Part shown: positions 1,870 through 21,348 of the stretch, piece by piece
How the letters are laid out: the number at the start of each line of letters is the position of its first letter
How positions within the stretch are numbered: the stretch's first letter is position 1
Assembly: GCA_963666595.2 (NCBI GenBank)
Contig: CAXXSV010000002.1
Span: forward strand, 149,241-213,240
Reading direction: 5' to 3'
From: Opitutales bacterium
Lineage (GTDB): Bacteria > Verrucomicrobiota > Verrucomicrobiia > Opitutales > CAXXNP01
Length of the DNA: 64,000 nucleotides
Notes under the pieces: model-generated
Database searches by the model: none
The model's input: the letters and a program-made list of their open reading frames with translations, nothing else
What the model was told of the DNA's origin: nothing
Program-made: the position numbers and the translations under genes

Positions 1870-3030
1870 ATGACACTGCTGCACCGCTATATTTTCCGCT
1901 CCGTGCTGTTTACGAGCCTGGCTTCGGTTGGATTGTTCGTATTTGTCCTGCTGGCCGGGCGCACTCTCAAGGATATTGTTGGGTTGCTGGCGGCAGGCCG
2001 GTTATCGGGACAAATGTTTGTCGAGCTGATGCTCCTGCTGATCCCTTACATGGTTTCCTATGCCCTGCCCCTGGGGATGCTCACGGGTATGCTGTTGGTA
2101 TTGGGCAGGCTATCGGCTCAGCGCGAAATCGTGGCGCTGAAAGCGGCCGGGGTATCGATCTGGTATATCGGAGCGCCCATATTAGCTCTGGCTCTGCTCG
2201 GCGTGGTTCTCAGCGGAGCAATTAATTGTTATTACGCTCCCCATGCCAAGACACGCTACCGGGCCAGACTTGCCGAATCGGTAAGTGAAGACCCGTTACG
2301 CTATATCGTTCCCAAAACTTTTATTCACGATTTCCCCGGATACGTCATTTACGCCGGCGAAAAGTCCGGCCAAACCCTGGAGGACTTCTGGATATGGGAA
2401 TTGGATGATGAGCAGCGTGCTGTGAGGGTGCTGCGAGCCCGGTCCGGCCAAGTTCAATACGATGCCGAGGGCGACGCACTGATACTCACCCTTGAAGAAG
2501 GCTTTACAGAGCTGCGCAGCGAAAATAACCCCGATGATATGCAAACAATCCGTCCCACGATCTCATTTAGCGAAGCAATAATTCGCCTGCCCCTGGACAA
2601 GCTTTTAGGCACCATCCGGCAGACTCAAAGGCTTTCGGACATGGACATAGGGCAACTGCTTAAAAAACGCTCGAATCTTGCCTTGCAACTGGAACAGCTC
2701 GACTCCGGGGAAGATACCGAAGTTCGAGCCGCCCTGGAGGTCGAAAAAATGAAAACGCAGGTGCAGTTGCAGAAGAATCTGGCAATGGCGTTCTCCATTC
2801 TCTCTCTGGCCCTGATCGGCATTCCTATGGGCATTCGTGTCAGTCGGAGTGAAACACATGCCAATATCGCCCTGGCGCTCATTCTGGCGCTTACCTACTA
2901 CTTTCTGATGATCATGGTCGGGTGGCTGGACAAAAATCCGACCCTACGTCCCGATCTGTTGGTCTGGTTGCCCAACATCCTCTACCAGAGCCTCGGTGTA
3001 TGGCTGTTGGTCCGCGCCAACCGCCATTAG
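1870..3030 (+). CDS. lptF: LPS export ABC transporter permease, LptF/LptG family
   Basis: LHRYI N-terminus, 3+3 TM layout around a periplasmic domain, EIVALKAAGVS and WLPN motifs. Confidence 0.8.
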   Translation: MTLLHRYIFRSVLFTSLASVGLFVFVLLAGRTLKDIVGLLAAGRLSGQMFVELMLLLIPYMVSYALPLGMLTGMLLVLGRLSAQREIVALKAAGVSIWYIGAPILALALLGVVLSGAINCYYAPHAKTRYRARLAESVSEDPLRYIVPKTFIHDFPGYVIYAGEKSGQTLEDFWIWELDDEQRAVRVLRARSGQVQYDAEGDALILTLEEGFTELRSENNPDDMQTIRPTISFSEAIIRLPLDKLLGTIRQTQRLSDMDIGQLLKKRSNLALQLEQLDSGEDTEVRAALEVEKMKTQVQLQKNLAMAFSILSLALIGIPMGIRVSRSETHANIALALILALTYYFLMIMVGWLDKNPTLRPDLLVWLPNILYQSLGVWLLVRANRH

Positions 3031-3139
3031 GGCTAACATTTTCGAGCAGTCTCAAGGGTCTCAGAAACTTATTCCCAATTGGCGCTTTTCCCTTGCTGCC
3101 TGGGACATGCCACATTCAAATGCTGCCCAAAAGACCGGC

Positions 3140-6100: not shown

Positions 6101-6859
6101 GATGTAACCGAGCCTCGGAGTGAACCTTCCGCCGAGGAATTGGAAGCCCTCGAAAGCCCCGATTGGACCGCTCTGGCCGAGGAAATTAATTCCCTGCGCA
6201 GCCGACTCCATGCTATGGGTCCGATCAACTTGATTGCCATCGAGGAACATGAATCGCTGAAAGAGCGTCATCTTTTCCTGAAAACCCAAAGCGACGACCT
6301 CCACAAGTCAAAGGACCAATTGTTGGCCGCCATCGACGATATCAACAAGATATCACTGAAGCTTTTTGAAACAACCTTCGAACATATCCGCAAGAATTTC
6401 CAATACACCTTCGATATTCTTTTTAGAGGCGGAGAGGCCGACCTGAAATTGATCGATACTGAGGACGTCCTCGAATCCGGAATCGACATTACGGCCAGAC
6501 CCCCGGGGACCCGTTTAAAAACCCTTGTTTTACTCAGTGGAGGGCAAAAGGCCCTCACCGCCGTGGCGCTGCTCTTTGCCGTTTACATGGTCAAGCCAAG
6601 CCCCTTTTGCCTGCTGGACGAATTGGACGCTCCTCTCGACGATGCCAATGTGGGACGTTTCACCGACCTGTTGAAACGTTTCCTGAAATATTCGCAATTC
6701 CTCATAATAACCCACAATAAACGCACCATCGGAGTGGCTGACTCCGTTTATGGGATAACCATGCAGGAAAAAGGTGTCTCCAAAGTAATATCCATGCGGC
6801 TGGATAAAGAGCCGGTACATGCGGAAGAACCCGAGGAAGTTGAGGCAAAAATCGGCTGA
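3140..6859 (+). CDS. smc: Chromosome segregation protein SMC
   Basis: GFKSF, Walker A GPNGCGKTN, long coiled coils, hinge, LSGGQ signature, LLDELDAPLD Walker B/D-loop. Start reassigned to ATG 3140. Confidence 0.96.
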   Translation: MYLKELRLNGFKSFADETFLALEPGLTAIVGPNGCGKTNIADAIRWVLGEQKTKSLRAGTMQDVIFQGSDTRKPVNLCEVSLLFTDCEKELKTSFHEVEVARRLNRDGGSDYYINGKMCRLKDIQNLFMDTGIGRVSYSFMLQGQIDQILSSNPVERRAIFEEAAGISRYKAQRKEAFNKLALVDSNLVRVTDVIEEVGRQIGSLRRQAGKALRYKRIKRRLTHIDLAGQGHKYGLLRSDMVTIDEQASGLRGKVNAMRDRQLAGEAEVGVKKPHRADLYESLQRAQQTVFDLRSEKEQAENQAELSAVRANDQSNRLEQIRKEQTTLRSQKEELADQAASEARRKGEQLEIIGCSDQDFQEKSSRLSVFREKLGLLEKEQQQHKQDLLIRESHFAGLRSNCNDIEVELKTCQARHTSLNEDILNMQKACAAGEDNLEKTRSLLVARCVDRKEAEDELQKLQDGADVNRKASYRIQNQIQEIDRVIVRISARAEVLIALQENFEGFGEGAKSILQGKLDGILSTESYRLLTRHLHVEPAYAKAIEALLGTAEDTIALSNKADLRAVTERLETNKLGRACLQISAPPKGSGQVNGSPEWLRPALEVISCDIPEMEALLKNLFADCYFCESLSDFLSFWEENGEFEFLLVATTQGDLIDRRGLIYAGHGAVQAEGYWQRDAEIKRLGRELGEQREFLESRRSEASKLKDDLDESAERIEERRKSLMETVQEISTLETQEGAFLDTLTENRDRIDRAEKNLLEFEDNKSDSANRLERANAQLTDAEADLENLSQTIAGLEQNVTRLNEEREAHQEGISEARLVLAEKRQSLEMLDRGIDELEAKSKEIDQILFRSDQEIDTLRAQIDDLEREASEQRARAAEIEKNLQITLGTLEETRVSMATSEKEISDIEESMASLREEIHTVETDLNRLDIKLAQQRSELNFLLEEIRREYDLDLDSVVWRRELWFAGEALPERIRVDIEEESPDEEDVTEPRSEPSAEELEALESPDWTALAEEINSLRSRLHAMGPINLIAIEEHESLKERHLFLKTQSDDLHKSKDQLLAAIDDINKISLKLFETTFEHIRKNFQYTFDILFRGGEADLKLIDTEDVLESGIDITARPPGTRLKTLVLLSGGQKALTAVALLFAVYMVKPSPFCLLDELDAPLDDANVGRFTDLLKRFLKYSQFLIITHNKRTIGVADSVYGITMQEKGVSKVISMRLDKEPVHAEEPEEVEAKIG

Positions 6860-7012
6860 AAATAAAATTTTTATTGAAGAAAAGAGTATTAGCCGTAAAT
6901 ACATTGGGCCGCCGCTCTTTGCGCAATCCCAACCTGGCCCTCCGGTCGTGCCGTAAAACACGAATTTAATTTCAGTAACTCCTGAAATGTTTTTTTAAAA
7001 TTACAGCAATTA

Positions 7013-7210
7013 ATGTATGATCAAAATATTCACCGAAAGCATTTTCTCACAAAACTGGGGGCTTTGGCACTGAGTGCCGTTGGGCTTTCCAAAATTACCC
7101 GCGCCGACGAACCTTCTTCCGGGGAAACGGAGGATTCGCCCAAAGAAACGCCTGCCATTGCGGCGAAAAAAGAACCTCGGGCGGTCGAACAGTCTGCCGA
7201 CCGGGTCTAA
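7013..7210 (+). CDS. Small hypothetical protein with Tat-like signal (RKHFL plus hydrophobic segment), first gene of the ACIII operon
   Basis: 65-aa ATG ORF 33 nt upstream of actA, same strand, signal-like N-terminus. Confidence 0.55.
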   Translation: MYDQNIHRKHFLTKLGALALSAVGLSKITRADEPSSGETEDSPKETPAIAAKKEPRAVEQSADRV

Positions 7211-7243
7211 AAACATCGCTGACTGGGGCACGGGGCATTCGCA

Positions 7244-7897
7244 ATGGCAAATATATTTCCCAAATGGTCAAACGCAGTTCCGTTGCAGCTGCTGATTGCC
7301 TTGCTCTTGCTCGGGACGGCGGTTACCGCCGGTGTCACCTATTACTTTACGCCCAAATACACGAAGGTTGGTTATATGCCCGTCCAGCCGGTCGCATACA
7401 GCCATTATCTGCACGTCGGCCAACTCGGTCTGGATTGCCGCTACTGCCACACATACGTTGACCGCTCCGGCCACGCCAATATCCCCGATGCGGCAACGTG
7501 TATGAACTGTCATAATCAGATATTGCCTGACAGTCCGGCCTTGGCCCCCATTCGGGAGAGTTATGCCTCTGGCGACCCGGTTCCGTGGGTAAAAGTTCAC
7601 ACAATGCCTGATTATGTCTATTTTAATCACGCGGTGCACGTAAACCGGGGTATAAGTTGTGTGGAATGCCATGGGCAGATTAACGAGATGGAGGTTGTTT
7701 ACCACGCCAAGTCGTTGAGCATGAAATTTTGCCTGGATTGCCACCGCCACCCGGAAAATTTCCTTAGACCACTTGACAAAGTTTACGATCTGGACTGGAA
7801 GCCTGAATCTTCCCAAGTCCAGATAGAAGCAGGGCAGCAAATGGTTCACGACTGGAAGATTTCTCCTCCGGAAAGCTGTTCGGGCTGCCATCGATAG
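7244..7897 (+). CDS. actA: Alternative complex III pentaheme cytochrome c subunit
   Basis: N-terminal TM helix and five CxxCH motifs (CRYCH, CMNCH, CVECH, CLDCH, CSGCH). Confidence 0.93.
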   Translation: MANIFPKWSNAVPLQLLIALLLLGTAVTAGVTYYFTPKYTKVGYMPVQPVAYSHYLHVGQLGLDCRYCHTYVDRSGHANIPDAATCMNCHNQILPDSPALAPIRESYASGDPVPWVKVHTMPDYVYFNHAVHVNRGISCVECHGQINEMEVVYHAKSLSMKFCLDCHRHPENFLRPLDKVYDLDWKPESSQVQIEAGQQMVHDWKISPPESCSGCHR

Positions 7898-7898
7898 C

Positions 7899-10800
7899 AT
7901 GAAGACAAATTCGCATAATTCCCAAAAGGTCGTAGACGAGGTAGTAGGACCTCGTTACTGGCGGAGTTTGGACGAATTGATGGAAACGCCCGGTTTCGAG
8001 GAGTTCGTCCAGCGCGAATTTCCACAGGGCGCCTCAGATATGGAAGGAGTGAACCGGCGGCAGTTTATAAAGATCATGACCGCCTCGTTTGCCCTGGCAG
8101 GCGCCGGTTTATCGGGCTGCCGACAGCCTGTGGCCCGCATAATGCCCTATTCCAGGCAGCCGGATCGAATTGTACCCGGTGTCCCGGTTTATTACGCCAC
8201 CTCTTTACCCACGGCAAAGGACAATATTCCCCTTGTCGTTGAAACGCACCAGGCACGTCCTACCAAGATTGAGGGCAACCACCTATACGGAGCCTACGGT
8301 GGATCGACGGATGTTTTCGCCCAGGCCAGCGTGCTCGACCTTTACGACCCCGATCGGGCCACGGCCGACAGCCGGGGAACCCGGTCCATCACGCGGGCCG
8401 AAGTCAACGACCTTTTACAGTCGGTGCATGATAAATACCTGTCCACCGATGGACAGGGGCTGGCTTTTCTGGTGGAAGAATCCACATCTCCAACCCGCGC
8501 CCGCATGCAGAGTGAACTGCTCGAGAAATTCCCGCGCGCAGTATGGGCGGAATACGAACCGGTTGACAGCAACAACCCGGAAATTGCAACAAAAAGGTTG
8601 TTTGGTCAGAGATTGCGCCCCCAATACCAATTGAGAAAGACTCGGCGCGTACTCTCGCTCGATACCGACTTTCTGCACAAGGAACCGGGCAACCTGAAAT
8701 ATGCCCGGGATTTTGCCGACGGACGGCGCTTTCTCCACGCCGGAGAAGCCGAGTCGGACAAGATGAACCGTCTCTACCAGGTAGAAAGCGCGTTGACCGT
8801 AACAGGCTCGATGGCCGACCACAGACTGCGGATGTCTACCGGCCAGATTCCAGCTTTTACCGCCCTGGTGGCTGCGGAGGTCCTGCGTCAAAAACATAGC
8901 GATAGCGCCCTCGAAGGGAAATTCAATAAATGGGGAAAGGGCATCTCCGTCGACCAGCAGTGGATAGAGGAATGTGTATCGGACCTGATAAACTTTGAAG
9001 GCGAGGCCCTGGTTGTATGCGGCAGCCACCTTCCCGTTGAAGTGCATCAATTGGTGTTTTTCATCAATGATCTTATCGGGGCGAACGGCCGAACTGTGGC
9101 CTACCTCGAGTTGCCTGAACGGGAAGCGGCCACCATCTCTGATTTAGCATCGGAAATCGAAAAAGGCAGAGTGGAAACCCTGATAATCATCGGGGGCAAT
9201 CCCGCCTATAATGCGCCGGCCGACCTCAACTGGGGGCAACTGCAATCCAGTGTAAAGGAAGTCATTCGCCACGGTTACCATGTCGATGAAACCTCTCTCC
9301 TGGCGATCGAGAATAAGGGCCATCACATCGCTGCCACCCATTTTCTGGAGTCCTGGAGTGACGGGCGCGCATTCGATGGCACAATTTGTGCGGTTCAGCC
9401 AATGATCCTGCCGCTCTTTAAAGGAATGCAGGAACTAGAATTGCTGGGTAGGCTGTCCGGAGCCGCGAACACCGATCCATATACCCTGGTTTTTGAAACC
9501 TTCAGCATCCTCACTGACGAGGCCGACAAGGAGAAGGCCTTTAACCGGTTTCTAAACTCAGGTTTGCTGCCTGATACGGCCTTTAAGGCCGTAAAAGTCG
9601 ATCCGGACAGACCTCTTTTAAAATCCACCCTCGCCACCGCAGATTTCTCATCTTCCATACAGAAATTAAACAATTTGGAGGTACGCATAGTTCCCGATAA
9701 CCACACATGGGACGGCCGTTACAACAACAATGGCTGGTTGCAGGAATGTCCGGACCCCATGACCAAATTGACTTGGGAAAACGCTATCCAGATCAGCCCG
9801 AGACTGGCAAAGGAAATCGGATTCGATCCACGGACTTCCACTTTACTGAAAGTTTCTGCCAAGAGCAGCAGCACTTTCGAAGGAGGTTTCGATGTTGCCC
9901 CGGTGGCCGAGATCACCATCGACGGCGTTTCCCTCAAAGGGCCAGTGCACATTCAGCCCGGACTGGCGGATTACACAGTCCTCTTATCCATAGGCTACGG
10001 GCGCACCAAAACGGGCCGTGTCGGCAAGGGTGCTGGATTTAATGTATATCCCTTTTTAAAGGTAAAGGCTCCAGCTTATTCATCGGGCGCAGTCCTCAGT
10101 CTTACCGGTGAAACTTCTTACCTCGCCAATACCCAGAGACATTGGTCCATGGAGGGCCGGGGCATTATCCGCGAGGCAAATGTTGAGGACTACCAGGAGC
10201 ACCCGGACTTTGCGCAAAAAATCGGCATCGAATCGCATTCACCGCCAATATTCGGCACCGCCAAAGATAAGTCCCTGCAATTCAAAGTCGCCAATCAACC
10301 GCGGGGCGGTTCCGCCTACGAGATACCTACATTCGGCGGCGCTCAACAGTGGGGCATGACGATCGATCTCAACACGTGCATCGGCTGCAATGCCTGTGTG
10401 GTCGCCTGCCAGAGCGAAAACAATATTCCCATCGTGGGGAAAGAACAAGTTTTGCGCGGGCGGGAGATGCAATGGATACGCCTCGATCGTTATTACTCCA
10501 GCGGCGACGAGGAAGCCAATAGGAAGGAGATTCCGGCCGATCCGCAGGTTTCGCTCATGCCCGTAAACTGCATGCATTGCGAAAACGCACCCTGTGAGCA
10601 GGTGTGCCCGGTCAACGCCACAGTGCACGACGATGAAGGCTTGAACGTTATGGCATACAACCGCTGCGTGGGCACCCGTTATTGCGCAAACAACTGTCCC
10701 TACAAGGTGCGCCGCTTCAACTTCTTCGACTGGAATAAACGCGATCTCGATCATTTATACGAAGGACCCGTCGGGCCGGCCGGCATGCCCGAATTGCAGA

Positions 10801-11243
10801 AAATGAAGATGAATCCGGACGTCACGGTGCGCATGCGCGGTGTTATGGAAAAGTGCACCTACTGCCAGCAACGTATCGATCAGGCCAAGATCGCGCAAAA
10901 GGTAAAGGCCCGCGATTCTTCCGACATACTGGTGCCCGACGGGGCTATAAAAACAGCTTGCCAGCAGGTCTGCCCGACCAGCGCTATCGCTTTCGGAGAC
11001 ATACTAGATCCCACCACCGAAATTTCCAGAATCAAGGCATCCGACCGCAATTATTCGCTGCTCGGATACCTCAACACCCGTCCGCGCACCACTTACCTCG
11101 CCAAACTGCGCAATCCCAACAAGCGCATGCCCGATTATCACGATATGCCCCTAAGCAGGATGGAATACGAGGCCAGGGCCGGCCACGGATCAGGACACGG
11201 AGGGGAGCATCAACCTGATGCTTCCGAAAACGGCGGGCATTGA
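7899..11243 (+). CDS. actB: Alternative complex III ActB (molybdopterin-oxidoreductase-like domain plus Fe-S domain)
   Basis: YWRSL N-terminus, Tat motif NRRQFIK followed by LSGC, and C-terminal Fe-S motifs CIGCNACVVAC, CMHCENAPCEQVC, CVGTRYCANNC, CTYC...CQQVC. Confidence 0.95.
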   Translation: MKTNSHNSQKVVDEVVGPRYWRSLDELMETPGFEEFVQREFPQGASDMEGVNRRQFIKIMTASFALAGAGLSGCRQPVARIMPYSRQPDRIVPGVPVYYATSLPTAKDNIPLVVETHQARPTKIEGNHLYGAYGGSTDVFAQASVLDLYDPDRATADSRGTRSITRAEVNDLLQSVHDKYLSTDGQGLAFLVEESTSPTRARMQSELLEKFPRAVWAEYEPVDSNNPEIATKRLFGQRLRPQYQLRKTRRVLSLDTDFLHKEPGNLKYARDFADGRRFLHAGEAESDKMNRLYQVESALTVTGSMADHRLRMSTGQIPAFTALVAAEVLRQKHSDSALEGKFNKWGKGISVDQQWIEECVSDLINFEGEALVVCGSHLPVEVHQLVFFINDLIGANGRTVAYLELPEREAATISDLASEIEKGRVETLIIIGGNPAYNAPADLNWGQLQSSVKEVIRHGYHVDETSLLAIENKGHHIAATHFLESWSDGRAFDGTICAVQPMILPLFKGMQELELLGRLSGAANTDPYTLVFETFSILTDEADKEKAFNRFLNSGLLPDTAFKAVKVDPDRPLLKSTLATADFSSSIQKLNNLEVRIVPDNHTWDGRYNNNGWLQECPDPMTKLTWENAIQISPRLAKEIGFDPRTSTLLKVSAKSSSTFEGGFDVAPVAEITIDGVSLKGPVHIQPGLADYTVLLSIGYGRTKTGRVGKGAGFNVYPFLKVKAPAYSSGAVLSLTGETSYLANTQRHWSMEGRGIIREANVEDYQEHPDFAQKIGIESHSPPIFGTAKDKSLQFKVANQPRGGSAYEIPTFGGAQQWGMTIDLNTCIGCNACVVACQSENNIPIVGKEQVLRGREMQWIRLDRYYSSGDEEANRKEIPADPQVSLMPVNCMHCENAPCEQVCPVNATVHDDEGLNVMAYNRCVGTRYCANNCPYKVRRFNFFDWNKRDLDHLYEGPVGPAGMPELQKMKMNPDVTVRMRGVMEKCTYCQQRIDQAKIAQKVKARDSSDILVPDGAIKTACQQVCPTSAIAFGDILDPTTEISRIKASDRNYSLLGYLNTRPRTTYLAKLRNPNKRMPDYHDMPLSRMEYEARAGHGSGHGGEHQPDASENGGH

Positions 11244-11275
11244 TACCCTAAAATACTTTCAGAAAACCTTTATCA

Positions 11276-12694
11276 ATGGATTTAGCAGAACAGGTTACTA
11301 TTCAAAAGCCCGCTATTCTCGATCAGGTCCGGCCGGCTGAAATGCCCCGACGTCCACTGGTCGAAAACGACCGTAACCTGAACTGGATGACCGAGAAAGT
11401 CTGCGGAATCGTAGAGGAAAAGACACCGAAGTGGTGGTGGTATTGCTTCGGTTCGGCCTGTTTTGTAGCCATGTTCACCGTGGTCGGGCTCACCTACCTG
11501 GTGGCAACGGGAGTCGGAGTGTGGGGGTTGCGTAATCCTACCAACTGGGGATGGGCGATTGTGAACTTTGTGTTCTGGATCGGTATAGGCCACGCCGGCA
11601 CACTGATATCGGCCATCCTTTGTCTGCTAAAGCAGAAATGGCGTACCAGCATCAATCGTGCAGCCGAGGCCATGACGATTTTTGCCGTTGTCTGCGCGGG
11701 CCTGTTCCCCCTTTTCCATACAGGGAGGGTCTGGTTCGCATACTGGCTTTTCCCGCTGCCTTCAAGTCAGGGAAACTGGCCGAACTTCCGCAGTCCGCTG
11801 GAATGGGATGTTTTTGCGATTTCCACTTATCTCACCGTCTCATTGCTTTTTTGGTACATGGGGATGATACCCGACTTGGCCACAATCCGCGACCGGGCCA
11901 AGAGCAAGATACGAAAGTTTGCCTATGGCATATTAGCTATGGGATGGCGCGGCTCCAACCGCCATTGGAGCAACTACGAAATGGCCTATTTGATGCTCGC
12001 CGGATTGGCCACGCCGCTTGTGCTCTCAGTGCACACAATCGTCTCCTTCGATTTCGCAGTGGCTAATATACCCGGCTGGCATAGCACCATATTCCCCCCT
12101 TACTTTGTTGCAGGCGCCATATTCTCCGGATTCGGCATGGTGCTGACACTCGTGCTGCCATTGCGGGCCATCTACAAGCTGCACGACCTTATAACTCAAT
12201 ATCACATCGACTGCATATGCAAAATCACGCTGGCGACAGGCAGCATGGTAGGGTATGCATATCTGATCGAGTTCTTCATCGCCTGGTATGGAGCGAATCC
12301 CCTCGAAGGCTTCGCTTTCGTTAACCGGGCGTTTGGCCCTTACGCCTGGGCTTACTGGATCATGATTAGCTGCAACGTCATTATTCCGCAGCTATTCTGG
12401 TTTCGAAAAGTCAGGGAGAATACCGCGTTAGTGTGGATAGTTGCCATACTTGTAAATGTCGGAATGTGGTTCGAGCGATTTGTCATCATAGTGGGAACGT
12501 TGGCAAACGACTTCTTGCCTTCGTCATGGGACTACTTTTCACCAACCGTCGTAGACATCTTTACATTTGTCGGAACCTTTGGAGTGTTCTCCGCACTGTT
12601 TCTGTTGTTTATCCGGTTCATGCCCCTGATCGCCTTAGCCGAGGTGAAGGCCGTGAGTCCCCGGGGCGATCCCCACGGCTCTCATCATCAATAA
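11276..12694 (+). CDS. actC: Alternative complex III quinol-binding membrane subunit (NrfD/PsrC family)
   Basis: [47 protein letters not shown] motifs; multi-TM. Confidence 0.95.
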
Positions 12695-12712
12695 CAAATC
12701 TTTTTAATCATC

Positions 12713-13246
12713 ATGTCAGAAAAACCATACGGACTGGCCGCCACCTTTGATTCGGCCCCGGCCATTTACCGGGCCGCAAAGCGAGTGCGCGACGCAGGCT
12801 ATAAAAACTGGGACGTATTTACGCCATTCCCGGTCCACGGGATGGACGAGGCAATGGGATTGTCACGCTCCCGGGTAGGAGCCTTTGTCCTGGTCGGCGG
12901 GGTGATCGGATTTTTCACAGGCATGTTGCTCGCCTGGTATATGGGTGCATACGACTTTCCGCTGATCGTCAGTGGCATGCCCTACTTCAGCCCGATATTC
13001 CCCTTTCCAATTGCATACGAACTGGCCATTTTGCTCGGCGCGTTCGGAGCCTTTTTCGGCATGTTTATAACCAATTTCCTGCCTCAGCACTATCATCCGA
13101 TCATGAACATGGATGGCTGGGAGCAAATAACCGACGATGCTTTCGCTCTTGTCATCGAGACCGGCGATCCGAACTACGATCCGGAAAGAACCAGGGCCTT
13201 ACTTGAGGAGATAGGGGCCGTAAAGATCAACGAAGTGGAATCGTAA
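12713..13246 (+). CDS. actD: Alternative complex III ActD (DUF3341-like)
   Basis: TPFPVHG motif, two TM helices, position after actC. Confidence 0.9.
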   Translation: MSEKPYGLAATFDSAPAIYRAAKRVRDAGYKNWDVFTPFPVHGMDEAMGLSRSRVGAFVLVGGVIGFFTGMLLAWYMGAYDFPLIVSGMPYFSPIFPFPIAYELAILLGAFGAFFGMFITNFLPQHYHPIMNMDGWEQITDDAFALVIETGDPNYDPERTRALLEEIGAVKINEVES

Positions 13247-13855
13247 ATGCGATATTTCATCACAATTTTTATATTCCTGATAGTGGCTACACTATCTATT
13301 GCCGGCCTGCGCGGCCGCAAGTCAGCCAAACCCCCGTTGGAGGTGTTTAATGACATGGATCGGCAATACAAATACCTGCCCCAAGCGGCCAGCCCTTTCT
13401 TTGCCGACGGGCGGGCCGACCGTCCCGTGGTCCCGGGTACGGTGCCGCTTGGTTCATTTCAGGAAGACACCTATTTTGCCACCGGCAAGGATGGGGATGA
13501 ATTCGGCCGGGACTTTCCCGTGTCGATCGACCACCAGTTGTTGGAACTCGGACGTGAGAAATACGACATTTTTTGCGCCGTCTGTCATGGAACTACTGGC
13601 GACGGCAATGGAATAACAAAAAGTTACGGCATGGTAGCTACTCCCACCTACCATGTCGACCGGTTGCGTGGATTGGCGGAGGGCGAAATTTTCGACATCA
13701 TTACCAATGGGAAAAACAACATGGGCCCATACGGTGCCAAGTTGAGCTACGAAGAACGCTGGGCGGTCATCGCCTACTTGCGAGCTCTGCAGTTGGCCCA
13801 AAACGCCACATCGGAGGATGTCCCTTCCGCGAGTCGAAAGGAACTAGGCCTATGA
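13247..13855 (+). CDS. actE: Alternative complex III monoheme cytochrome c ActE
   Basis: DMDRQYK..Q motif, CAVCH heme site, MGPY axial Met, RWAVIAYLRAL. Confidence 0.9.
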   Translation: MRYFITIFIFLIVATLSIAGLRGRKSAKPPLEVFNDMDRQYKYLPQAASPFFADGRADRPVVPGTVPLGSFQEDTYFATGKDGDEFGRDFPVSIDHQLLELGREKYDIFCAVCHGTTGDGNGITKSYGMVATPTYHVDRLRGLAEGEIFDIITNGKNNMGPYGAKLSYEERWAVIAYLRALQLAQNATSEDVPSASRKELGL

Positions 13856-15150
13856 GTTTGGAAGCACTATCAAATCCTGCGATTGCCGCAGAGTCCGGCG
13901 GCAAAAAGGATTACTCGAAACTTGCCTTGATAGTGGCGACAGTTGGTCTGGCGATTTCGGCTTTCGGGCTTTACTCAGGTTTGGACCAGGAAAATGTCCG
14001 TCCGTTTTTGGGCTGGTTGATTGCCTTCAGCTATTGGCTTTCGGTGGGCCTGGGCATGTTGTTCTTGATCATGCTTTTTTACCTGTTCGACTCCGGCTGG
14101 TCTGTCGTTCTGCGAAGACCTCTAGAACATGCCTTGGGCGGAATGAAGTGGTTGGGACTGATATTTCTGCCGCTACTTCTGGTAGGTGTTTTCGTCTCCG
14201 GCAACGGAGCAGTCCTCTGGAAATGGATGGACCCGGCTCATGTGCTAATTGGCGGAGGGACGGTAGCAGAGGATCCGCTTTACCAGGCCAAGGCCGCATT
14301 CCTGAACGTGCCGTTCTTTGTTCTGCGCTCAGTCATATATTTTGGAATCTGGATCGGGTTGGCCGCCGTTTTGCGCCACGCCTCATTCAGCATGGACAAG
14401 GATGGAGACACTCGCTGGACCAGTCGTTGCCGAAAATGGTCCGCATTCGGCGTAATAGCCTGTTCGATTACGGTTACCTTCGCTTCAGTCGACTGGTTCA
14501 TGAGCATTGAATATCACTGGTTTTCGACCATGTATGGAGTGTGGTTTTTTTCCGAGAGCATGCGGGCTGGATTAGCTGTGCTGGTAATAATATGTTGGTT
14601 TTTATCGACGCGAGGGGCGCTCAAAGGATTATACAAACCGTCCCATAATTACTTGCTCGGTTGCCTGATGCTGGCATTTACGGTTTTCTGGGCTTACATC
14701 GTATTTTGCCAATATTTCCTCATCTACAGCGCCAATATTCCGGAGGAAACATTTTGGTATAACATGCGCGAGCTGTCTGTGAGTGGAGAAAATATTAAGA
14801 GCAGTTGGTGGTGGGTTAGTATGGGGCTGATCTTCGGACATTTCTTTTTCCCATTCTTTTTCCTGCTGTGGTATAAAAATAAATTCGGCCTGCGCATAGT
14901 ATTTATCTCCGTCTGGATACTGGTATTCCATCTGCTCGACATTTATTGGAATATTCTTCCCGGCCTTTCCCCGGCCGAAAACCCGTTCGGTTACGACATC
15001 AGGCAATTCAGTATTTCCATCTGGGATATATCCGGATTGCTAGGCATCGGGGGCCTTCTGGTCTGGTCTTTTCTCAACGACGCTAAAAAAACGGCCTCCA
15101 TTCCACTGCGGGATCCGCGCATCATGGAGTCTCTTACGCATCATGAGTAA
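13852..15150 (+). CDS. actF: Alternative complex III membrane subunit ActF
   Basis: Multi-TM; DWFMS..HWFSTMYG and YSANIPEET motifs. ATG 13852 overlaps the actE stop (ATGA). Confidence 0.9.
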   Translation: MSLEALSNPAIAAESGGKKDYSKLALIVATVGLAISAFGLYSGLDQENVRPFLGWLIAFSYWLSVGLGMLFLIMLFYLFDSGWSVVLRRPLEHALGGMKWLGLIFLPLLLVGVFVSGNGAVLWKWMDPAHVLIGGGTVAEDPLYQAKAAFLNVPFFVLRSVIYFGIWIGLAAVLRHASFSMDKDGDTRWTSRCRKWSAFGVIACSITVTFASVDWFMSIEYHWFSTMYGVWFFSESMRAGLAVLVIICWFLSTRGALKGLYKPSHNYLLGCLMLAFTVFWAYIVFCQYFLIYSANIPEETFWYNMRELSVSGENIKSSWWWVSMGLIFGHFFFPFFFLLWYKNKFGLRIVFISVWILVFHLLDIYWNILPGLSPAENPFGYDIRQFSISIWDISGLLGIGGLLVWSFLNDAKKTASIPLRDPRIMESLTHHE

Positions 15151-15499
15151 CCCTCACGATACATCATCGAATAACCGCGATCCAGGTGGCTTCAAAGTCA
15201 TGGTTTCCGCCATTGGGTATATCGGGGTGATGTTGATTTTCATACTCATCGTTTACCTTTCTTACGTATCCAACCAGCCGCCTCCGATTGACGAGCAGAT
15301 AATCGATGAACGCCTGCAAACATTAGCTGAGGTGCGCGCCAATCAAAAAGAAGCGGCCGTCAATTACGGTTGGGTGGACCGCTCGAAGGGAATCGTGCGC
15401 ATCCCGATTGAGAGGGCCATGGAACTCACCGTGCGGAAGCTCGCCGCAGTTCAGGAGGAGACAGAAGTCTCCCGGGAAATTGACGAAGCAACACCATGA
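15143..15499 (+). CDS. Single-TM protein, ActG-like ACIII accessory subunit
   Basis: One TM helix and a YGWVD...RIPIERAM motif as recalled from ACIII-associated small subunits; overlaps both neighbours. Confidence 0.65.
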   Translation: MSNPHDTSSNNRDPGGFKVMVSAIGYIGVMLIFILIVYLSYVSNQPPPIDEQIIDERLQTLAEVRANQKEAAVNYGWVDRSKGIVRIPIERAMELTVRKLAAVQEETEVSREIDEATP

Positions 15500-16959
15500 G
15501 CGAGCAATCTCTTCAGTCAACGCCAACCAGCGATATCGACTGCTCGATAAAATGGCCGGCGCTGCACTTTTTGGTATGGGCTGTCATCTGGCTGTTGGTT
15601 GGGTCTGTCCTGAGCCTGATCTCCTACGTCAAGCTCACTAACCCGGCGTTTTTATCTTCGTGGGAGTGGTTGACCTACGGGCGGGTGCATCCCGCGGCAA
15701 TTAACGCCATGGTATACGGCTGGTCCTGCAACGCTGCTTTCGCCGTAGCCTTGTGGATAATGGCGCGGCTATGCCGTGCCGGCATAAGGGGCGCCGGATT
15801 GTTGTTAACGGCCGGATTGTTCTGGAATATCGCTGTAGCCGTCGGAATAGGAGGCATCATTTACGGAGACATGATTGCGGTCGAATTTCTTGAAATGCCG
15901 GCCTACGTCACGCCGCTGATGGTGTTGTCTTATTTAGCGATCAGCGTATGGGGAATCATCTCGTTTCGATACCGGCGGTGCGAACAAATCTACGTCTCAC
16001 AATTTTATATTCTGGCGGCATTTTTCTGGTTTCCGTGGCTTTACACCGTAGCGCAGATTATGATTGTATTTGCGCCTGCACGAGGCGTTGTGCAGTCGAT
16101 AGTCAGTGCCTGGTATTCGCACAACTTGATGTGGTTGTGGATAGCTCCAATTGGGCTGGCCGCCGCATATTACTTGATACCAAAGGTGCTGGGCCGCCCG
16201 ATTTATCAATACAAACTCGCAGTTACGGGGTTTTGGACCTTGGCATTGTTTTCCAGTTGGGCCGGCATGCGGCATCTCGCGGGAGGGCCGGTTCCGGCCT
16301 GGGTAATTTCCACAAGTATTGTCGCCGGTATTTTTGTAATCATTCCGGTCGTAATCATTGCGCTCAACTGCCATGTAACCGCCTTCGACAATTTCGACGG
16401 GGTTTTGCGAAATCCCGTATTGCGCTTTGTCGTATTCGGAATGGTCTCCTTTACCCTGGCCGGATTGATTGGGTCGATTACGGTATTGCGAACGGTTAAT
16501 GAAGTAATCCAATTTACATACTTCACGGCAGGCCAATCACAACTCTTCAGCTACGCCTTTTTCTCCATGGTCATGTTCGGGAGCATCTATTTTTTAATAC
16601 CCCGTCTGCTTGGTCGCGAATGGCCATCCGCTCGCCTTATCAATTGGCACTTTCGGGCTTGCTCGACGGGTATTGTGATAGCGATTGCGGCCCTTATGAT
16701 GGGAGGTTTGATACAGGGCTGGCAGATGAACGCCTTGGATGAAAGCGGCGCTCCCGTTTTCGAGTTTCTGAAAGTTGTGGGTTATACTGGCCCCTGGCTT
16801 AAGATTAAATTGGCGGGAGAGATTCTGCTTTTAGCCGGGCACCTCGCATTTGCCGTCAATTTTTCTCGGTTGTTGGCCGGACTGCTTATAAGCGAGATTG
16901 CCGATAAAATCCCGGACTGGATCGGACCTACATTCAATAAATCCCGAGAGGTATCATGA
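15496..16959 (+). CDS. cbb3-type oxidase subunit I (CcoN)-like protein, apparently catalytically degenerate
   Basis: About 12 TM; CcoN landmarks TYGR, WYSHN, YYLIPK...PIY and WAG are present, but most metal-ligand His are substituted (see findings). Confidence 0.85.
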
Positions 16960-17615
16960 AGAATTTTCCACTGTTTTTTTGCGGAATCTTTTTCACGCTG
17001 GCCTTCTCGTGGGCCGGGTTGGTGCTCATCGGCCATAACCAGCTAGGCTCTCTAACTACCACGACGGAAAGAATTGATGGCGAAACGGGAGGTCCGGTGA
17101 AGGGCAATCCGCTCTATCCGGTTTCTTCGGCAGGCATGGCCATGCAGGGAAAGCAAGTTTATATGAGTATGGGTTGTTTCAATTGCCATACTCAACAGGT
17201 GCGCCGACAAGGACTCGGCGCTGATTATGAAAGAGGATGGGGCGACCGCCAAACTGTGGCTCGCGATTACATACGGGAAGAGCGCGTACTATTGGGTAGC
17301 TATCGCATCGGCCCTGACCTGCGCGATGTTGGCAGTCGGCTTCCCGAATCCGAATGGCATCACCTGCATCTTTATAACCCCCAAATCACCTCCGAAGGCT
17401 CAATAATGCCGCCTTTTGGATTCCTTTATGAGACCCGAAAAATAAAGGAAGAAATCCCCTCTCCCAAAGCTTTGAACCTGCCCGAAGAATACTTGGCGCC
17501 GGAAGGTCACGAAGTCGTTCCCACACGTCGAGCTGAAGCTCTTGTGGCTTATTTAATGAGTCTGCGCCTCGATTACAGCCTGCCCGAAGCCCAACTCACC
17601 CAATCATCTCAATGA
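16956..17615 (+). CDS. cbb3-type oxidase subunit II (CcoO/FixO)-like monoheme cytochrome c
   Basis: N-terminal [26 protein letters not shown] axial Met. Confidence 0.85.
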
Positions 17616-18289
17616 ACGATTTACCTTCATTTCCAACACCTCCGCGGCCGGATGACCCACAAGCGTCGAAAGGGACCGGGTTCGGCGATGCCGAAATGCA
17701 GGACGTCCACGCCCGGCTTCTGCGAGGAAAGGAAAGATCCACCGATCACATTTTGGAACTTTCCCTGGTCCTGGTATTGCTGAGCATTGGGATCATTGTT
17801 TCGGCGGAATACTTGATCGAAAATTCCGGTGGATTTGATCCCATGGTCTATGATGAGACCAAAAAGCAGGGTGGGGTGGTAATGATGGTAGAGCCGCCGT
17901 TCGATGCCGTGTTGGCCGGAGAGAACTTTTACAAGGCTAACTGCGTCGTCTGCCACCAGTCGAATGGCGGAGGGATTCCGGGCGCTTTTCCGCCATTAAC
18001 TGAATCAGAATGGGTGGCCGGCAGCGAGGACCGCCTCGCCAGTATTCTACTGAATGGTCTAAGCGGGCCGATTACTGTAAAAGGCGCTCAATACTTCAGC
18101 GTTATGCCCCCGTTAAATCAATTTTCCGACCGCGATCTTGCATCGGTTTTGACATTTGTGCGCCAGTCATTCGGCAACAACGCGGCCCCGGTCAGCGAAG
18201 AAAAGGTTGCTGAAATTCGCGCTCTATATAGTGACCGCCCCGCTCCGTGGTCACCGGAAGAACTCCTGAAGTTTTATCCAATTGAATAA
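17612..18289 (+). CDS. Membrane-anchored monoheme class I cytochrome c
   Basis: TM helix, [18 protein letters not shown] axial Met. Confidence 0.88.
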
Positions 18290-18316: not shown

Positions 18317-19321
18317 TTATTCTTCTTCGCCGAGTCGTTTGCCCGAAACCAGGTAGCTTTTTACGCAATCGGTGACTGCTTCGGCAAGTGGGGTGACCTG
18401 CTTCTCATACCCGGAAGACCGCAGTGTTGATATGTCGGCCTGGGTAAAATACTGGTATTTGGAGCGTAAGTTCTGAGGCATTTCGATGAAGTCGATTTCC
18501 TCAGGCTTTTCCATTGCGGCAAATATAGCTGATACCAGGCTTATCCAAGTGTTGGCTACGCCGCTGCCAATATTGAAAATACCAGCTGCGCCGGACTTTT
18601 CGGCCAGATGCATTGTCATAGCGACGGCGTCCTTGACATACAGGAAATCCCGCCGTTGTTCGCCGTCGCGGTAGTCGGGGTGATAACTTTTAAATAGACC
18701 TACGCGGCCCGTATCCCTGATTTGTTCACAGGCTTTGTGGACCAGGCTGCGCATATCACCCTTTTGGTATTCATTTGGTCCAAAAACATTGAAATACTTT
18801 AGACCCACGATGTGATCGAGCATTCCGTGCCGCCGTGCGAACAGGTCGAATAGGTGCTTGGAATAGCCATACATATTCAGGGGGCGCAATTTACCGAGTC
18901 CATCCTCGGCGTCGGACATGCCCCGCGAGCCGTCGCCGTAGGTAGCTGCCGAGGAGGCATAGACGAATCGCTTGCCCTTATCCAAAGCCCATAGCGCCAA
19001 TGTCCTGGTATACTCGTAGTTGTTCCGGATGAGGTAATGGCTGTCACGCTCGGTTGTATCCGAGCAGGCGCCGAGATGGAAGACGGCGGTGACATCGTCG
19101 TATTGCTCGGGGCGCGAATCGAGGTCCGATAGAAATTGGTCTGCGTCCTGAAAGTCGTCGAACTGAAGTGGTACGAGGTTTTTGAACTTGTCGTCTTCAC
19201 CCATGCGGTCGATTACAAGGATATTGTCGATGCCTCGCTCATTGAGCGCCCACACCAGGGAACTGCCGATGAACCCGGCTCCTCCGGTGACGACTATTTT
19301 GCCCTTCTCCAGGATGCTCAT
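18317..19321 (-). CDS. rfaD: ADP-L-glycero-D-manno-heptose 6-epimerase
   Basis: TGGAGFIGS, HLGACSDT, YASSAATYG, YGYSK, KYQYFTQAD. Confidence 0.93.
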   Translation of the reverse strand: MSILEKGKIVVTGGAGFIGSSLVWALNERGIDNILVIDRMGEDDKFKNLVPLQFDDFQDADQFLSDLDSRPEQYDDVTAVFHLGACSDTTERDSHYLIRNNYEYTRTLALWALDKGKRFVYASSAATYGDGSRGMSDAEDGLGKLRPLNMYGYSKHLFDLFARRHGMLDHIVGLKYFNVFGPNEYQKGDMRSLVHKACEQIRDTGRVGLFKSYHPDYRDGEQRRDFLYVKDAVAMTMHLAEKSGAAGIFNIGSGVANTWISLVSAIFAAMEKPEEIDFIEMPQNLRSKYQYFTQADISTLRSSGYEKQVTPLAEAVTDCVKSYLVSGKRLGEEE

Positions 19322-20124
19322 CAGGATTGTGCGAGTTCGATCGAGCGCTTCCTGGCCGCCTCAACGGCGTCTGCAAGAATGCGTCGGAATTCTTTTTCGC
19401 CCAAAACCTCTAGGGCCGCCATTGTGGTTCCACCGGATGAAGTGACCTGGTCGCGCAAGTTCTCCGGGCTTTCACCGGTGCGGGCAAGCAAACGGGCGGC
19501 GCCCAGAGTTGTTTCCAAGGCGAGCTTGTAAGCTACCTTTGGGTCCAGACCTGCAGCGATACCGCTGTCTCGCAGGGCGGCGACAAACTCGAACACATAC
19601 GCGGGGCCGCTGCCGCTAACCGCAGTTACGGCGTCAAGGTATTCCTCGTCCAGGGGGATTACATGGCCCATCGAGCCGAGGATTTTTTCAACGGCCTCCA
19701 TATCTTCGCTCTCGAGGGGATCGAGAGATGCGTAGCATGTGATACCGGCTCCAATCTGGCCGGGGGTATTGGGCATGGCCCGCACTATGTTCCCGGCCTT
19801 TGGAAATCTTTCATTGAGCTTATTAAGAGGAGTCCCGGCCAGAATGGAGATGATGAGTTTCCCGGCGGTCAATTCGGACACAGTCTGGTCGATGTCTTCC
19901 AACTGCTGGGGCTTGCAAGCGAGGACGACGATGGCTGGTTCCTGGAGCAGACTGCGAAGGTCAGTGCCATAACCTATGCTAGTGCTGTCAGCCAGGGCTT
20001 CACCTGTACCGTCCGGAGCACTGGTGCAGACAAGCTGATCCGGTGTATATAGTTTTTTGGCCAGGAGGCCGTTCACCATGGCTGACGCCATCCTACCGGC
20101 TCCGAGGAATGCAATATCGGTCAT
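19321..20124 (-). CDS. proC: Pyrroline-5-carboxylate reductase
   Basis: GAGRMA, RAMPNTP, SGSGPAY, VTSSGGTT. Confidence 0.95.
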   Translation of the reverse strand: MTDIAFLGAGRMASAMVNGLLAKKLYTPDQLVCTSAPDGTGEALADSTSIGYGTDLRSLLQEPAIVVLACKPQQLEDIDQTVSELTAGKLIISILAGTPLNKLNERFPKAGNIVRAMPNTPGQIGAGITCYASLDPLESEDMEAVEKILGSMGHVIPLDEEYLDAVTAVSGSGPAYVFEFVAALRDSGIAAGLDPKVAYKLALETTLGAARLLARTGESPENLRDQVTSSGGTTMAALEVLGEKEFRRILADAVEAARKRSIELAQS

Positions 20125-20247
20125 AAATTCAATAATTTATGTATCCTGAGCCGAAAATCGAGCAAATCTTAAATTTGCCCACCGCAATTCCGATCGGGCT
20201 CCCGTGCTCACTCCGCAGCTAATCGTGGTTGCGGATGCCGTAGTCGA

Positions 20248-21348
20248 TCACAATGGATGTGTAAGCAGTGCGCAGGTACCGCCCATGGGGCGGTTTTGCA
20301 GGATCAGTTCCCCGCCGAAATTGCGAATACTGTGTCGTGCAACGCTTAACCCCATCCCTCGACCGACCGAAGACTTGGAACTGACGAAGGGCTCGAACAT
20401 ATTATCCTCGATTTCGGCGTCGATCCCGCTTCCACAATCGTTCACCCTGACCAGTAGACGGTGCTTTCCGTTAATTTTCATAACCTCTGTCTCGATGTCT
20501 AAGGGGCGATTGCCGTTGTTTTCATTGGGATAGCTTTCCCAGCCATTAATGAGCAGTTTACCTAAAATGGACTCGAAAACCTCGACATTAGTCTGCACCT
20601 CGATATCGGGATTCGATTTGGATATATTTACATTGGCATCGACCTTGTATTCTCTCTTAAATCGCTCGACACTCTTTTGCAGCAGGGGCAATAGAAGAAT
20701 CTTGGTCGTGCTGAAACATTCATTATCGGCAATAATGCCAAGCTGTCTGATGATATTGACAATGCGCTTGATGGCCTTATCCATGAGTTGGGTGCTGCGC
20801 TTTACCATATCGGGATTGTCATAACCTGTTTTTACCAGGTCCAGGTAACCGACCACCACACCTAGAAGGTTATTGAGGTTGTGTGCGAGACCCTGTGTGA
20901 CGGCCCCGATGGCAGCAGTCTTCCGGGTGTCGTCAAGGCGCATTTGCAGTTCAAGGTTTTCACGGTAAATTTCCTGAAAACGCAACTGAGTATTTACACG
21001 GGCCAAGGTTTCGTCGAGATCGATGGGCTTTGTAATGTAATCGACCGCCCCGGCATTCAATCCTTCCAGTTTACCCTCCTTGGAAGACTTGGCCGTTATA
21101 AATAGTATGGGTATTGTACGGGTATCTTCAGAAGCTTTAAGTCTCTCGCAAACCTCGATGCCGCTCATTCCGGGCATCATAACATCCAGCAAGATGAGGT
21201 CCGGCGGTGTTTTTGCAACGATATCGAGACATTCCTGGCCACTGAAAGCCTGGAGAATCTCCATTCCTTCCCGCCCGAGCTTGCGCTCGAGCAGTTTAAC
21301 GTTAAGTATATGGTCGTCAACAACCAGAATTTTCGGCTTGGTTTTCAA
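20248..21348 (-). CDS. Hybrid response regulator-histidine kinase (REC + HisKA + HATPase)
   Basis: ILVVDD / LLDVMMP / KP receiver motifs; H-box LAHNLNN; DCGSGI, FEPF and GRGMGL boxes. TTG start uncertain. Confidence 0.88.
   Translation of the reverse strand: MKTKPKILVVDDHILNVKLLERKLGREGMEILQAFSGQECLDIVAKTPPDLILLDVMMPGMSGIEVCERLKASEDTRTIPILFITAKSSKEGKLEGLNAGAVDYITKPIDLDETLARVNTQLRFQEIYRENLELQMRLDDTRKTAAIGAVTQGLAHNLNNLLGVVVGYLDLVKTGYDNPDMVKRSTQLMDKAIKRIVNIIRQLGIIADNECFSTTKILLLPLLQKSVERFKREYKVDANVNISKSNPDIEVQTNVEVFESILGKLLINGWESYPNENNGNRPLDIETEVMKINGKHRLLVRVNDCGSGIDAEIEDNMFEPFVSSKSSVGRGMGLSVARHSIRNFGGELILQNRPMGGTCALLTHPL

Follow-up and report, generated by a model that had tools for sequence, protein, structure and literature searches.

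A window of 64,000 nucleotides from the genome of an Opitutales bacterium of the phylum Verrucomicrobiota (assembly GCA_963666595.2, contig CAXXSV010000002.1, positions 149,241 to 213,240 of the forward strand) encodes an alternative complex III (ACIII) operon whose tail carries a homologue of ccoN, the gene for subunit I of the cbb3-type cytochrome c oxidases. It is established that at this locus the cofactor ligands of CcoN and the maturation gene ccoS have been lost, that the ccoN-like gene has been retained, and that its heme c-bearing partners and ACIII are intact. The encoded protein is probably a structural relic and not an oxidase, and the best reading, to which we give moderate credence, is that of a redox-dead membrane scaffold holding two c-type cytochromes on ACIII. 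Below, P-numbers denote proteins, L-numbers fetched loci and G-numbers genomes; P0001 is the product of the window open reading frame (ORF) at 15496..16959. Homologues that keep all six ligand histidines are called six-His, and those in which ligand histidines are lost are called depleted.

The ORF of P0001 starts with ATG and has no internal stop. Its product belongs to the heme-copper oxidase subunit I family (PF00115 COX1, E 4.4e-53) and finds its closest solved chains in cbb3 CcoN (9g6b_A, E 5.8e-45; 3mk7_A, E 1.4e-41), by which it is recognised as a CcoN homologue. It shares with the CcoN of cbb3 oxidases (Pseudomonas stutzeri 3MK7 and 5DJQ; 9G6B) the PF00115 domain, the fold and a CcoO-like gene directly downstream, but differs from them in keeping two of the six histidines, in lacking the tyrosine and ccoS, in having a monoheme third subunit, and in scoring 179.6 bits against the CcoN equivalog model TIGR00780, below its cut-off of 583.15. 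A residue alignment to 3mk7_A places the loss at four of the six histidine ligands and the cross-link tyrosine, and a comparison of the equivalent motifs showed that: 1) the GRLRPLHTN motif is GRVHPAAIN in P0001, with A68 in place of the histidine. 2) WWYGHN becomes AWYSHN, and H209 is kept. 3) YIWAGPHHL becomes SSWAGMRHL, with S253 for the tyrosine and R259 for the first histidine, and H260 is kept. 4) In the counterpart of HYTDWTIGHVH the three histidines are replaced by Q339, Q347 and Q349. An earlier note on this DNA had drawn the same four comparisons by eye, and the alignment reproduces each of them. The assignment of individual histidines to individual metals we take to be the one described for the P. 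stutzeri structures, and the tyrosine is reportedly cross-linked to a CuB histidine in cbb3 enzymes, as the title of Rauhamaki 2006 indicates.

These replacements are real departures rather than alignment noise, because the seven ligand and tyrosine columns read H-H-Y-H-H-H-H in 106 of 121 aligned sequences, namely the query and the best 120 listed among 895 matches at E <= 0.001 that a word-indexed search returned from 8000 scored candidates. Altogether P0001 has seven histidines, at positions 24, 65, 209, 260, 293, 385 and 449. Beside the ligand sites bulky residues replace small conserved ones (G213W, G351F). The ligands of a NorB subunit of the cNOR or qNOR type are missing as well, the same columns being lost. 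By its predicted ligand positions, P0001 is a pseudoenzyme in the sense of having lost catalytic residues.

The ccoN-like gene is the eighth of ten head-to-tail genes spanning 7244-18289 in the order actABCDEFG, ccoN-like, ccoO-like, cytochrome c (Table 1), separated by 1, 32, 18, 0, -4, -8, -4, -4 and -4 bases. Five overlaps chain actE through the last cytochrome gene, four of them ATGA start/stop overlaps (at 13852, where the ATG of actF overlaps the actE stop, and at 15496, 16956 and 17612) and one of 8 bases. The genes are thus co-linear and translationally coupled, with ActA to ActG all recognisable, ActF by synteny only: its homologues precede actG and ccoN in related loci. The unbroken frame of 487 codons and its ATGA overlaps with both neighbours, as described earlier, were confirmed in the DNA; the gene does not, however, lie inside ACIII, as the note had placed it, but comes after the last ACIII gene, actG. 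The ORF of 118 codons directly upstream is, judged by profile comparison, ActG: a profile of 41 homologues matches chain 8k9e_G, 'ActG' of the Chloroflexus aurantiacus ACIII (E 1.6e-5), and Foldseek, given its AlphaFold2 (AF2) model (predicted local distance difference test score, pLDDT, 89), also ranks this chain first, albeit weakly. This profile match led us to reject the protein as a cbb3 component such as CcoQ, CcoH or CcoS.

The gene order from actA to the cytochrome c gene is the same in six-His and depleted operons, and in the six-His ones actG and ccoN have between them a separate FixS/CcoS ORF of some 60 residues (e.g. L005, 1242-1433). In the window actG overlaps the start of the ccoN-like gene, and because the two genes overlap there is no space for ccoS between them. 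A ccoS profile built from L005 detected no ccoS-like ORF in the window, and PF03597 (FixS) had no match in the window's genome, which is 94% complete. Applied to all fetched loci, the same profile found ccoS in 35 of 35 six-His, 0 of 1 five-His and 3 of 79 depleted loci, the three being L015 (75 bits) and the weakly matching L061 and L120 (about 31 bits). L015 (G013), where the ccoS-like ORF at 2923-3108 on the minus strand stands beside a CcoN with one of six histidines, is the sole clear exception. Pfam FixS matches occur in 11 of 41 related genomes and lie beside the ccoN-like gene in ten of these; in G010 the match begins a contig other than that of the ccoN-like gene. Ten of the 11 positive genomes are six-His and one has a partial CcoN ORF, and none of the 12 depleted-type genomes is among them. 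Two further markers were uninformative, TIGR02745 (ccoG) being found only in G014, next to a second, fused cbb3, and PF05751 (fixH) in none of five genomes. An active cbb3 requires CcoS, according to the available part of PMC7558416, and in Rhodobacter capsulatus mutants without it the cbb3 complex assembles completely yet is inactive (Koch 2000 and Kulajta 2006, as cited in the accessible text of PMC5742617). The ligand loss, together with the failure to find ccoS, supports the earlier view that P0001 would not work as an oxidase.

The loss is shared by close relatives. The clade of the window comprises 13 distinct full-length proteins of 487 or 501 amino acids, 74-92% identical, all with open frames and all depleted, a point that the earlier note had asked to be checked; five of the listed matches, at 75-91% identity, have the same loss. 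Homologues with the full pattern among the aligned 121 are 50-60% identical to P0001, and no close orthologue with intact ligands, which would have spoken for recent decay, came to light: the nearest six-His orthologues are only 56-60% identical. Judged from this distribution, the ligand loss predates the 26% divergence that separates proteins of this clade. At the ligand positions themselves the clade is not uniform: H209 is invariant in all 13 members, the H260 column reads H, N, S or Q, and P0006 still carries two of the three histidines of the last motif. H65, one turn before the lost heme b histidine, was considered as an alternative heme b ligand and rejected, as it is not conserved among the closest relatives, where the column is H, Q or S. 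Across six aligned clade representatives the only invariant histidines are H209, H385 and H449, along with 10 methionines and 14 tyrosines; since H385 and H449 are histidine in six-His homologues too, outside the ligand columns, the clade offers no conserved site at which a metal could be bound instead. Only one of the genomes compared belongs to the same family, G001 (locus L004); it keeps six histidines and has threonine for the cross-link tyrosine, as do all six members of its protein cluster (P0008, P0135-P0139), and its locus gives a weak ccoS match; this tyrosine-to-threonine change in a sister lineage may mark the onset of the same decay. When metagenome and genome contigs were scanned for DNA of close relatives, 55 and 65 loci were obtained, none above 53% identity.

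The AF2 model of P0001 has a 12-helix fold (pLDDT 93.9, predicted TM-score 0.92) and superimposes on the CcoN chains 3mk7_A and 9g6b_A with a Foldseek TM-score of 0.88/0.92 and a root-mean-square deviation of 1.7-2.0 A. NorB and the A- and B-type subunits match it well behind CcoN (NorB 3o0r_B, TM-score 0.77). As far as a predicted structure can tell, this shows the sequence to be compatible with the cbb3 CcoN fold.

Several measures point to continued selection. The ratio of nonsynonymous to synonymous change (dN/dS, method NG86, codons 20-460) has a median of 0.11 (range 0.034-0.238) over 304 non-independent depleted pairs and of 0.119 over 53 likewise non-independent six-His pairs. A set of 136 columns is conserved at >=95% among 72 six-His representatives. 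When these columns are followed in 55 depleted representatives from outside the window's clade, 72 of them hold at >=80%, 38 take values in between and 26 drop under 40%; the last group, released from constraint, consists of the ligand positions and adjacent residues on the four helices that carry ligands. H209 is kept in just 15% of these other depleted lineages. P0001 itself retains 106 of the 136. Two sediment metagenomes yielded contigs of about 85-88% DNA identity over the ORF, with no net frameshift in the listed pieces. Natural variants within the ORF, of which 18 were displayed out of 1193 rows after selection by the tool for support, are synonymous in 11 cases and replace a residue in 7. 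When neutral drift was simulated in 300 runs, the ORF stayed free of stops in 7%, 1%, 0.3% and 0% of them at 92, 83, 79 and 74% identity. On these sequence comparisons there is strong indication that the depleted family has stayed under purifying selection since the loss; for the window's own clade the indication is indirect, coming from the 13 open frames, the neutral simulation and the variant counts. The earlier observation that the gene is retained gains support from the 13 open depleted relatives, the variant counts and the conserved columns alike. Relative to the ActF, ActG and CcoO neighbours, CcoN diverges at 0.70x in six-His pairs and at 1.07x in depleted pairs; between the window and G001, CcoN identity is 60% at a neighbour identity of 60%, as against 76% at 61% for the six-His pair L004-L005. 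At residue 242 (16219-16221) the serine present in >=95% of six-His proteins is alanine in the window and, convergently, in 96% of the other depleted lineages; positions 242 and 319 we take to be part of the cbb3 proton path, which a literature search did not confirm.

The depleted state extends well beyond the window's clade. Among the fetched loci, which were obtained by peptide patterns and are biased toward the query, 41 of 141 ORFs show the full ligand pattern, two of the 141 being the window's own gene. Cluster representatives at 50% identity are free of that bias: 391 were found at E <= 1e-30, the best 150 were scored, and 14 of these had no residue at one or more of the seven sites. 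Among the 136 scorable representatives 71 keep no ligand histidine, 43 keep one, 15 two, 2 three, 1 four and 4 six. Since 132 of the 136 are depleted, the state must be old and widespread, yet the tally is one of diversity and not of genomes, because the faster-evolving depleted proteins form many clusters. Every histidine column is still histidine in at least one depleted lineage, and therefore the individual ligands eroded in parallel.

The CcoN sequences and their neighbours disagree on how often this happened. In a FastTree phylogeny of CcoN the strongly depleted proteins group together (57 rows, support 99), as do 18 depleted rows in a mixture-model tree with the ligand columns removed (SH-aLRT 92), the depleted branches measuring 0.6-2.8 versus 0.1-0.3. 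In trees of the neighbouring genes (the C-terminal part of ActF, ActG and the CcoO-like protein), depleted and intact operons are interleaved and the window stands beside its family mate G001 (support 86 and 83); the two types can be placed on these trees with 10-11 changes, at least 6 of them dictated by branches of good support. Uniting 13 depleted operons in one clade is rejected on the neighbour data (approximately unbiased test, p-AU 0.0003), and the CcoN data reject a grouping of the window's clade with G001 (p-AU 0.013), both test groups having been chosen after the trees were seen. A single origin of all depleted proteins was rejected on the interleaving and the first of these tests. 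We read the conflict as repeated loss, with long-branch attraction likely to account for the way CcoN itself groups; a transfer that exchanged only ccoN is a possible alternative. Tentatively, and with somewhat more doubt than confidence, we suggest that CcoN was made into a cofactor-free structural protein at least six times in Verrucomicrobiota, that ccoS was nearly always discarded, and that this happened only in genomes with an A-type oxidase. If so, CcoN would have a second, catalysis-independent role in the ACIII supercomplex, and the leftover pair of CcoO and cytochrome c would reroute the electrons of ACIII to the aa3-type oxidase.

The partner cytochromes have kept their heme sites. 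At least one CxxCH is present in the CcoO-like protein of 79/79 depleted, 1/1 five-His and 40/40 six-His loci, and the downstream cytochrome c keeps its CxxCH in 73/73, 1/1 and 35/35, respectively. In the CcoO-like family C74, C77 and H78 are invariant in 41 sequences and M151 nearly so, and the window has, as expected next to a CcoN, an adjacent CcoO with a heme c motif. Both proteins score under curated cut-offs, the CcoO-like one with 69.5 versus 200.65 bits and the 17612..18289 cytochrome with 27.8 bits against TIGR00782. In 22 of 73 depleted loci, e.g. the Chthoniobacter-type L066, L070, L121 and L124-L129, a second cytochrome c ORF follows the first, giving three CxxCH in all.

The sole other heme-copper oxidase in the window's genome is an A-type COX1 with intact HPEVY, WAHHMF and GHFHY motifs. 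It lies about 1 Mb from the operon, with COX3 and COX4 genes adjoining and a bd-like subunit with three c-type cytochromes next to the cluster. An A-type oxidase of at least 500 bits occurs in 12/12 depleted-type and 8/15 six-His genomes (Fisher p = 0.008, which is overstated since the genomes are kin). In the six-His genome G010, the A-type COX1 match (G010:C3:191291-192850) holds one in-frame TAG. No ORF recognised as COX2 was found in the A-type cluster of the window's genome (L154, G000:C2:1163000-1180000, 5380-16299), in which COX1 is preceded by a membrane-anchored cupredoxin and a 264-amino-acid protein of unknown family, and followed by the bd-like subunit I, the three c-type cytochromes and an EB_dh domain protein.

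These observations suggest the following scheme. P0001 would descend from the CcoN of a cbb3 oxidase whose genes, in Verrucomicrobiota, form the tail of the ACIII operon, and would be catalytically dead and free of cofactors. In the window's lineage hemes b and b3 and CuB would no longer be bindable and ccoS would have been deleted, and the 12-helix protein would still be produced, selected for a structural job. The dead CcoN would hold the membrane-anchored CcoO-like protein and the second monoheme cytochrome c beside ACIII, so placed that their two c hemes would lead electrons out of the heme wire of ActA and ActE to another acceptor, most likely the A-type heme-copper oxidase whose genes lie at another place in the genome. 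We infer, specifically, that P0001 is free of any cofactor, that it still associates with the CcoO-like protein, that it sits on ACIII, and that the destination of the electrons is the A-type oxidase. Among the uses that the earlier note had offered for the protein, a scaffold for the CcoO-like and c-type cytochromes would fit best, given the complete retention of the CxxCH motifs and the R. capsulatus precedent. That precedent resembles the window in that CcoS is missing, activity is absent and the complex assembles with its c-type subunits (PMC5742617, available part), but it is a laboratory mutant with all ligands present, whereas the window represents a natural, fixed state with the ligands eroded. 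A docked oxidase is likewise familiar from the ACIII-caa3 and ACIII-aa3 supercomplexes of Rhodothermus marinus and Flavobacterium johnsoniae, where the oxidase is encoded after the act genes and receives electrons by direct heme-to-heme transfer (PMC5928083 and PMC8552683, in their accessible portions), and in R. marinus the oxidase subunit I/III docks beside ActC (PMC5928083, same portion). In these organisms, however, an active A-family oxidase is docked, whereas the C-family core of the window would be redox-dead and its A-type oxidase is encoded about 1 Mb away.

Several points weigh against the scaffold. The alignment given to AF2 was rich in six-His homologues, and the model is silent on whether the heme pockets are empty or filled. 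Among depleted proteins we found no column conserved in them only, which would have been a positive signature of a new function, and constraint is relaxed about 1.5-fold compared with six-His CcoN. The selection estimate for the window's own clade depends on the small, tool-selected variant sample described above, and no RNA run carrying the window stretch was found. The invariance of H209 in the 13 clade members leaves room for a residual site. CcoN is found in pieces in L081, L085 and L147, where the neighbours are split too, which looks like poor assembly; counting CcoN-like, CcoO-like and act genes together, split ORFs occur in L081, L085, L114 and L147.

Other explanations of the retained gene have to be weighed against these data. 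An unlikely one is that the dead CcoN is a structural part of ACIII or its supercomplex, needed for assembly or stability whether or not the cytochromes pass electrons. It would suit the strictly kept gene order and the translational coupling to actF and actG, the docking of the R. marinus oxidase subunit I against ActC (PMC5928083, accessible part) and the fact that depleted CcoN evolves at the pace of its ActF, ActG and CcoO neighbours; but the ACIII of other phyla functions without an oxidase subunit, as the available parts of PMC5928083 and PMC8552683 describe, and the heme c motifs kept in every depleted locus would be left unexplained. We regard as quite improbable that the emptied heme-copper fold is reused as an ion or proton channel or as a conformational coupling module beside ActC and ActF. 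The fold does persist, as do most of the polar and aromatic residues that are conserved, and cofactor-free membrane subunits are common in such complexes (PMC8076601, in the part available), but no column is newly conserved in depleted proteins, so that the ion conduction proposed earlier has no positive support. Also against it, residues 242 and 319, whose place in the proton path is presumed, are alanine and phenylalanine in P0001.

Very improbable, further, is a protein that still works in redox chemistry, binding a heme or metal through H209, H385, H449 and the methionines and tyrosines invariant in the window's clade, and catalysing some reaction. Against it stand the status of H385 and H449 as conserved non-ligand columns in six-His homologues, the variation of H65 and H260 among the closest relatives, the absence of ccoS and the free variation of all ligand columns across depleted lineages. 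The suggestion that copper is bound via the two remaining histidines is not supported, given the same variation at H260 and the rarity of H209 in other depleted lineages. That the gene lost its function recently, is on its way out and is merely not yet broken, as its faster evolution than six-His CcoN, the two last-motif histidines of P0006 and the loss of only the tyrosine in G001 might suggest, is hardly credible in view of the 13 full-length relatives, open even at 74% identity, when compared with the outcome of simulated neutral drift, the excess of synonymous variants, the low dN/dS of the depleted family and the prevalence of depletion among the scored representatives.

Clusters in which act genes are followed by cbb3 genes are known from Opitutaceae and verrucomicrobial methanotrophs (Refojo et al. 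2010, cited in the accessible text of PMC8498564; PMC6688271, likewise in part), and the window resembles them in that the cbb3 genes come directly after the act genes. The accessible portions of PMC8498564 and PMC6688271 take the cbb3 part as a working high-affinity oxidase, whereas subunit I is ligand-less in the window and in most fetched relatives; we found no mention of ligand loss in those portions. A literature search turned up no description of a ligand-less CcoN, one query being swamped by unrelated acronyms and supplements being left unopened. The proteins carry the database name 'cbb3-type cytochrome c oxidase subunit I', and ccoN is read as a sign of high-affinity, low-oxygen respiration in genome surveys, e.g. 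in the part available of bioRxiv 10.1101/365627; a ccoN-like gene of the present kind is easily misread there. If subunit I is indeed empty, the inference of low-oxygen respiration would be wrong for this organism and for a large share of Verrucomicrobiota. It would also be an example from nature of a heme-copper oxidase core retained for something other than catalysis, and would give a way into the question of how electrons pass from ACIII to its partners, both of which a cultured carrier of a depleted operon would make testable.

Table 1. Genes of the ACIII operon and ligand-position codons of the ccoN-like gene, in window positions
Feature	Position	Strand	Basis
actA, pentaheme cytochrome c of ACIII	7244..7897	+	multiheme cytochrome c Pfam families; five CxxCH
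actB, Fe-S / molybdopterin-like subunit	7899..11243	+	4Fe-4S dicluster domains; QrcC-like; variant twin-arginine translocation (TAT) signal
actC, NrfD-like membrane subunit	11276..12694	+	PF03916 NrfD, E 4.5e-26
actD	12713..13246	+	PF11821 ActD, E 5.3e-61
actE, monoheme cytochrome c	13247..13855	+	Cytochrome_CBB3 and Cytochrom_C domains; one CxxCH
actF, second large membrane subunit	13852..15150	+	named by position and synteny; no Pfam match
actG, 118-amino-acid single-pass membrane protein	15143..15499	+	profile match 8k9e_G; no Pfam family
ccoN-like gene, P0001, 487 amino acids, cbb3 subunit-I fold	15496..16959	+	PF00115; alignment to 3mk7_A
ccoO-like monoheme cytochrome c, N-terminal membrane helix	16956..17615	+	PF02433 FixO, E 9.4e-22; CFNCH at residue 74; MPP motif
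membrane-anchored monoheme cytochrome c, weakly CcoP-like	17612..18289	+	Cytochrom_C, E 3.3e-10; CVVCH at residue 111
codon A68, presumed low-spin heme b His place	15697..15699	+	3mk7_A alignment; column His in 114/121
codon H209, sole ligand-position His invariant in the window's own clade	16120..16122	+	alignments
codons S253 to H260; first (presumed CuB) His of the HH pair replaced by Arg, second kept	16252..16275	+	alignments
codons Q339, Q347, Q349; three conserved His places, two presumed heme ligands	16510..16542	+	alignments

The surroundings of the operon in the window are ordinary. Upstream lies a gene for SMC (flank span 2996-6859), and downstream, on the minus strand at 18317-21348, are genes for an ADP-heptose 6-epimerase, proC and a hybrid response regulator/histidine kinase.

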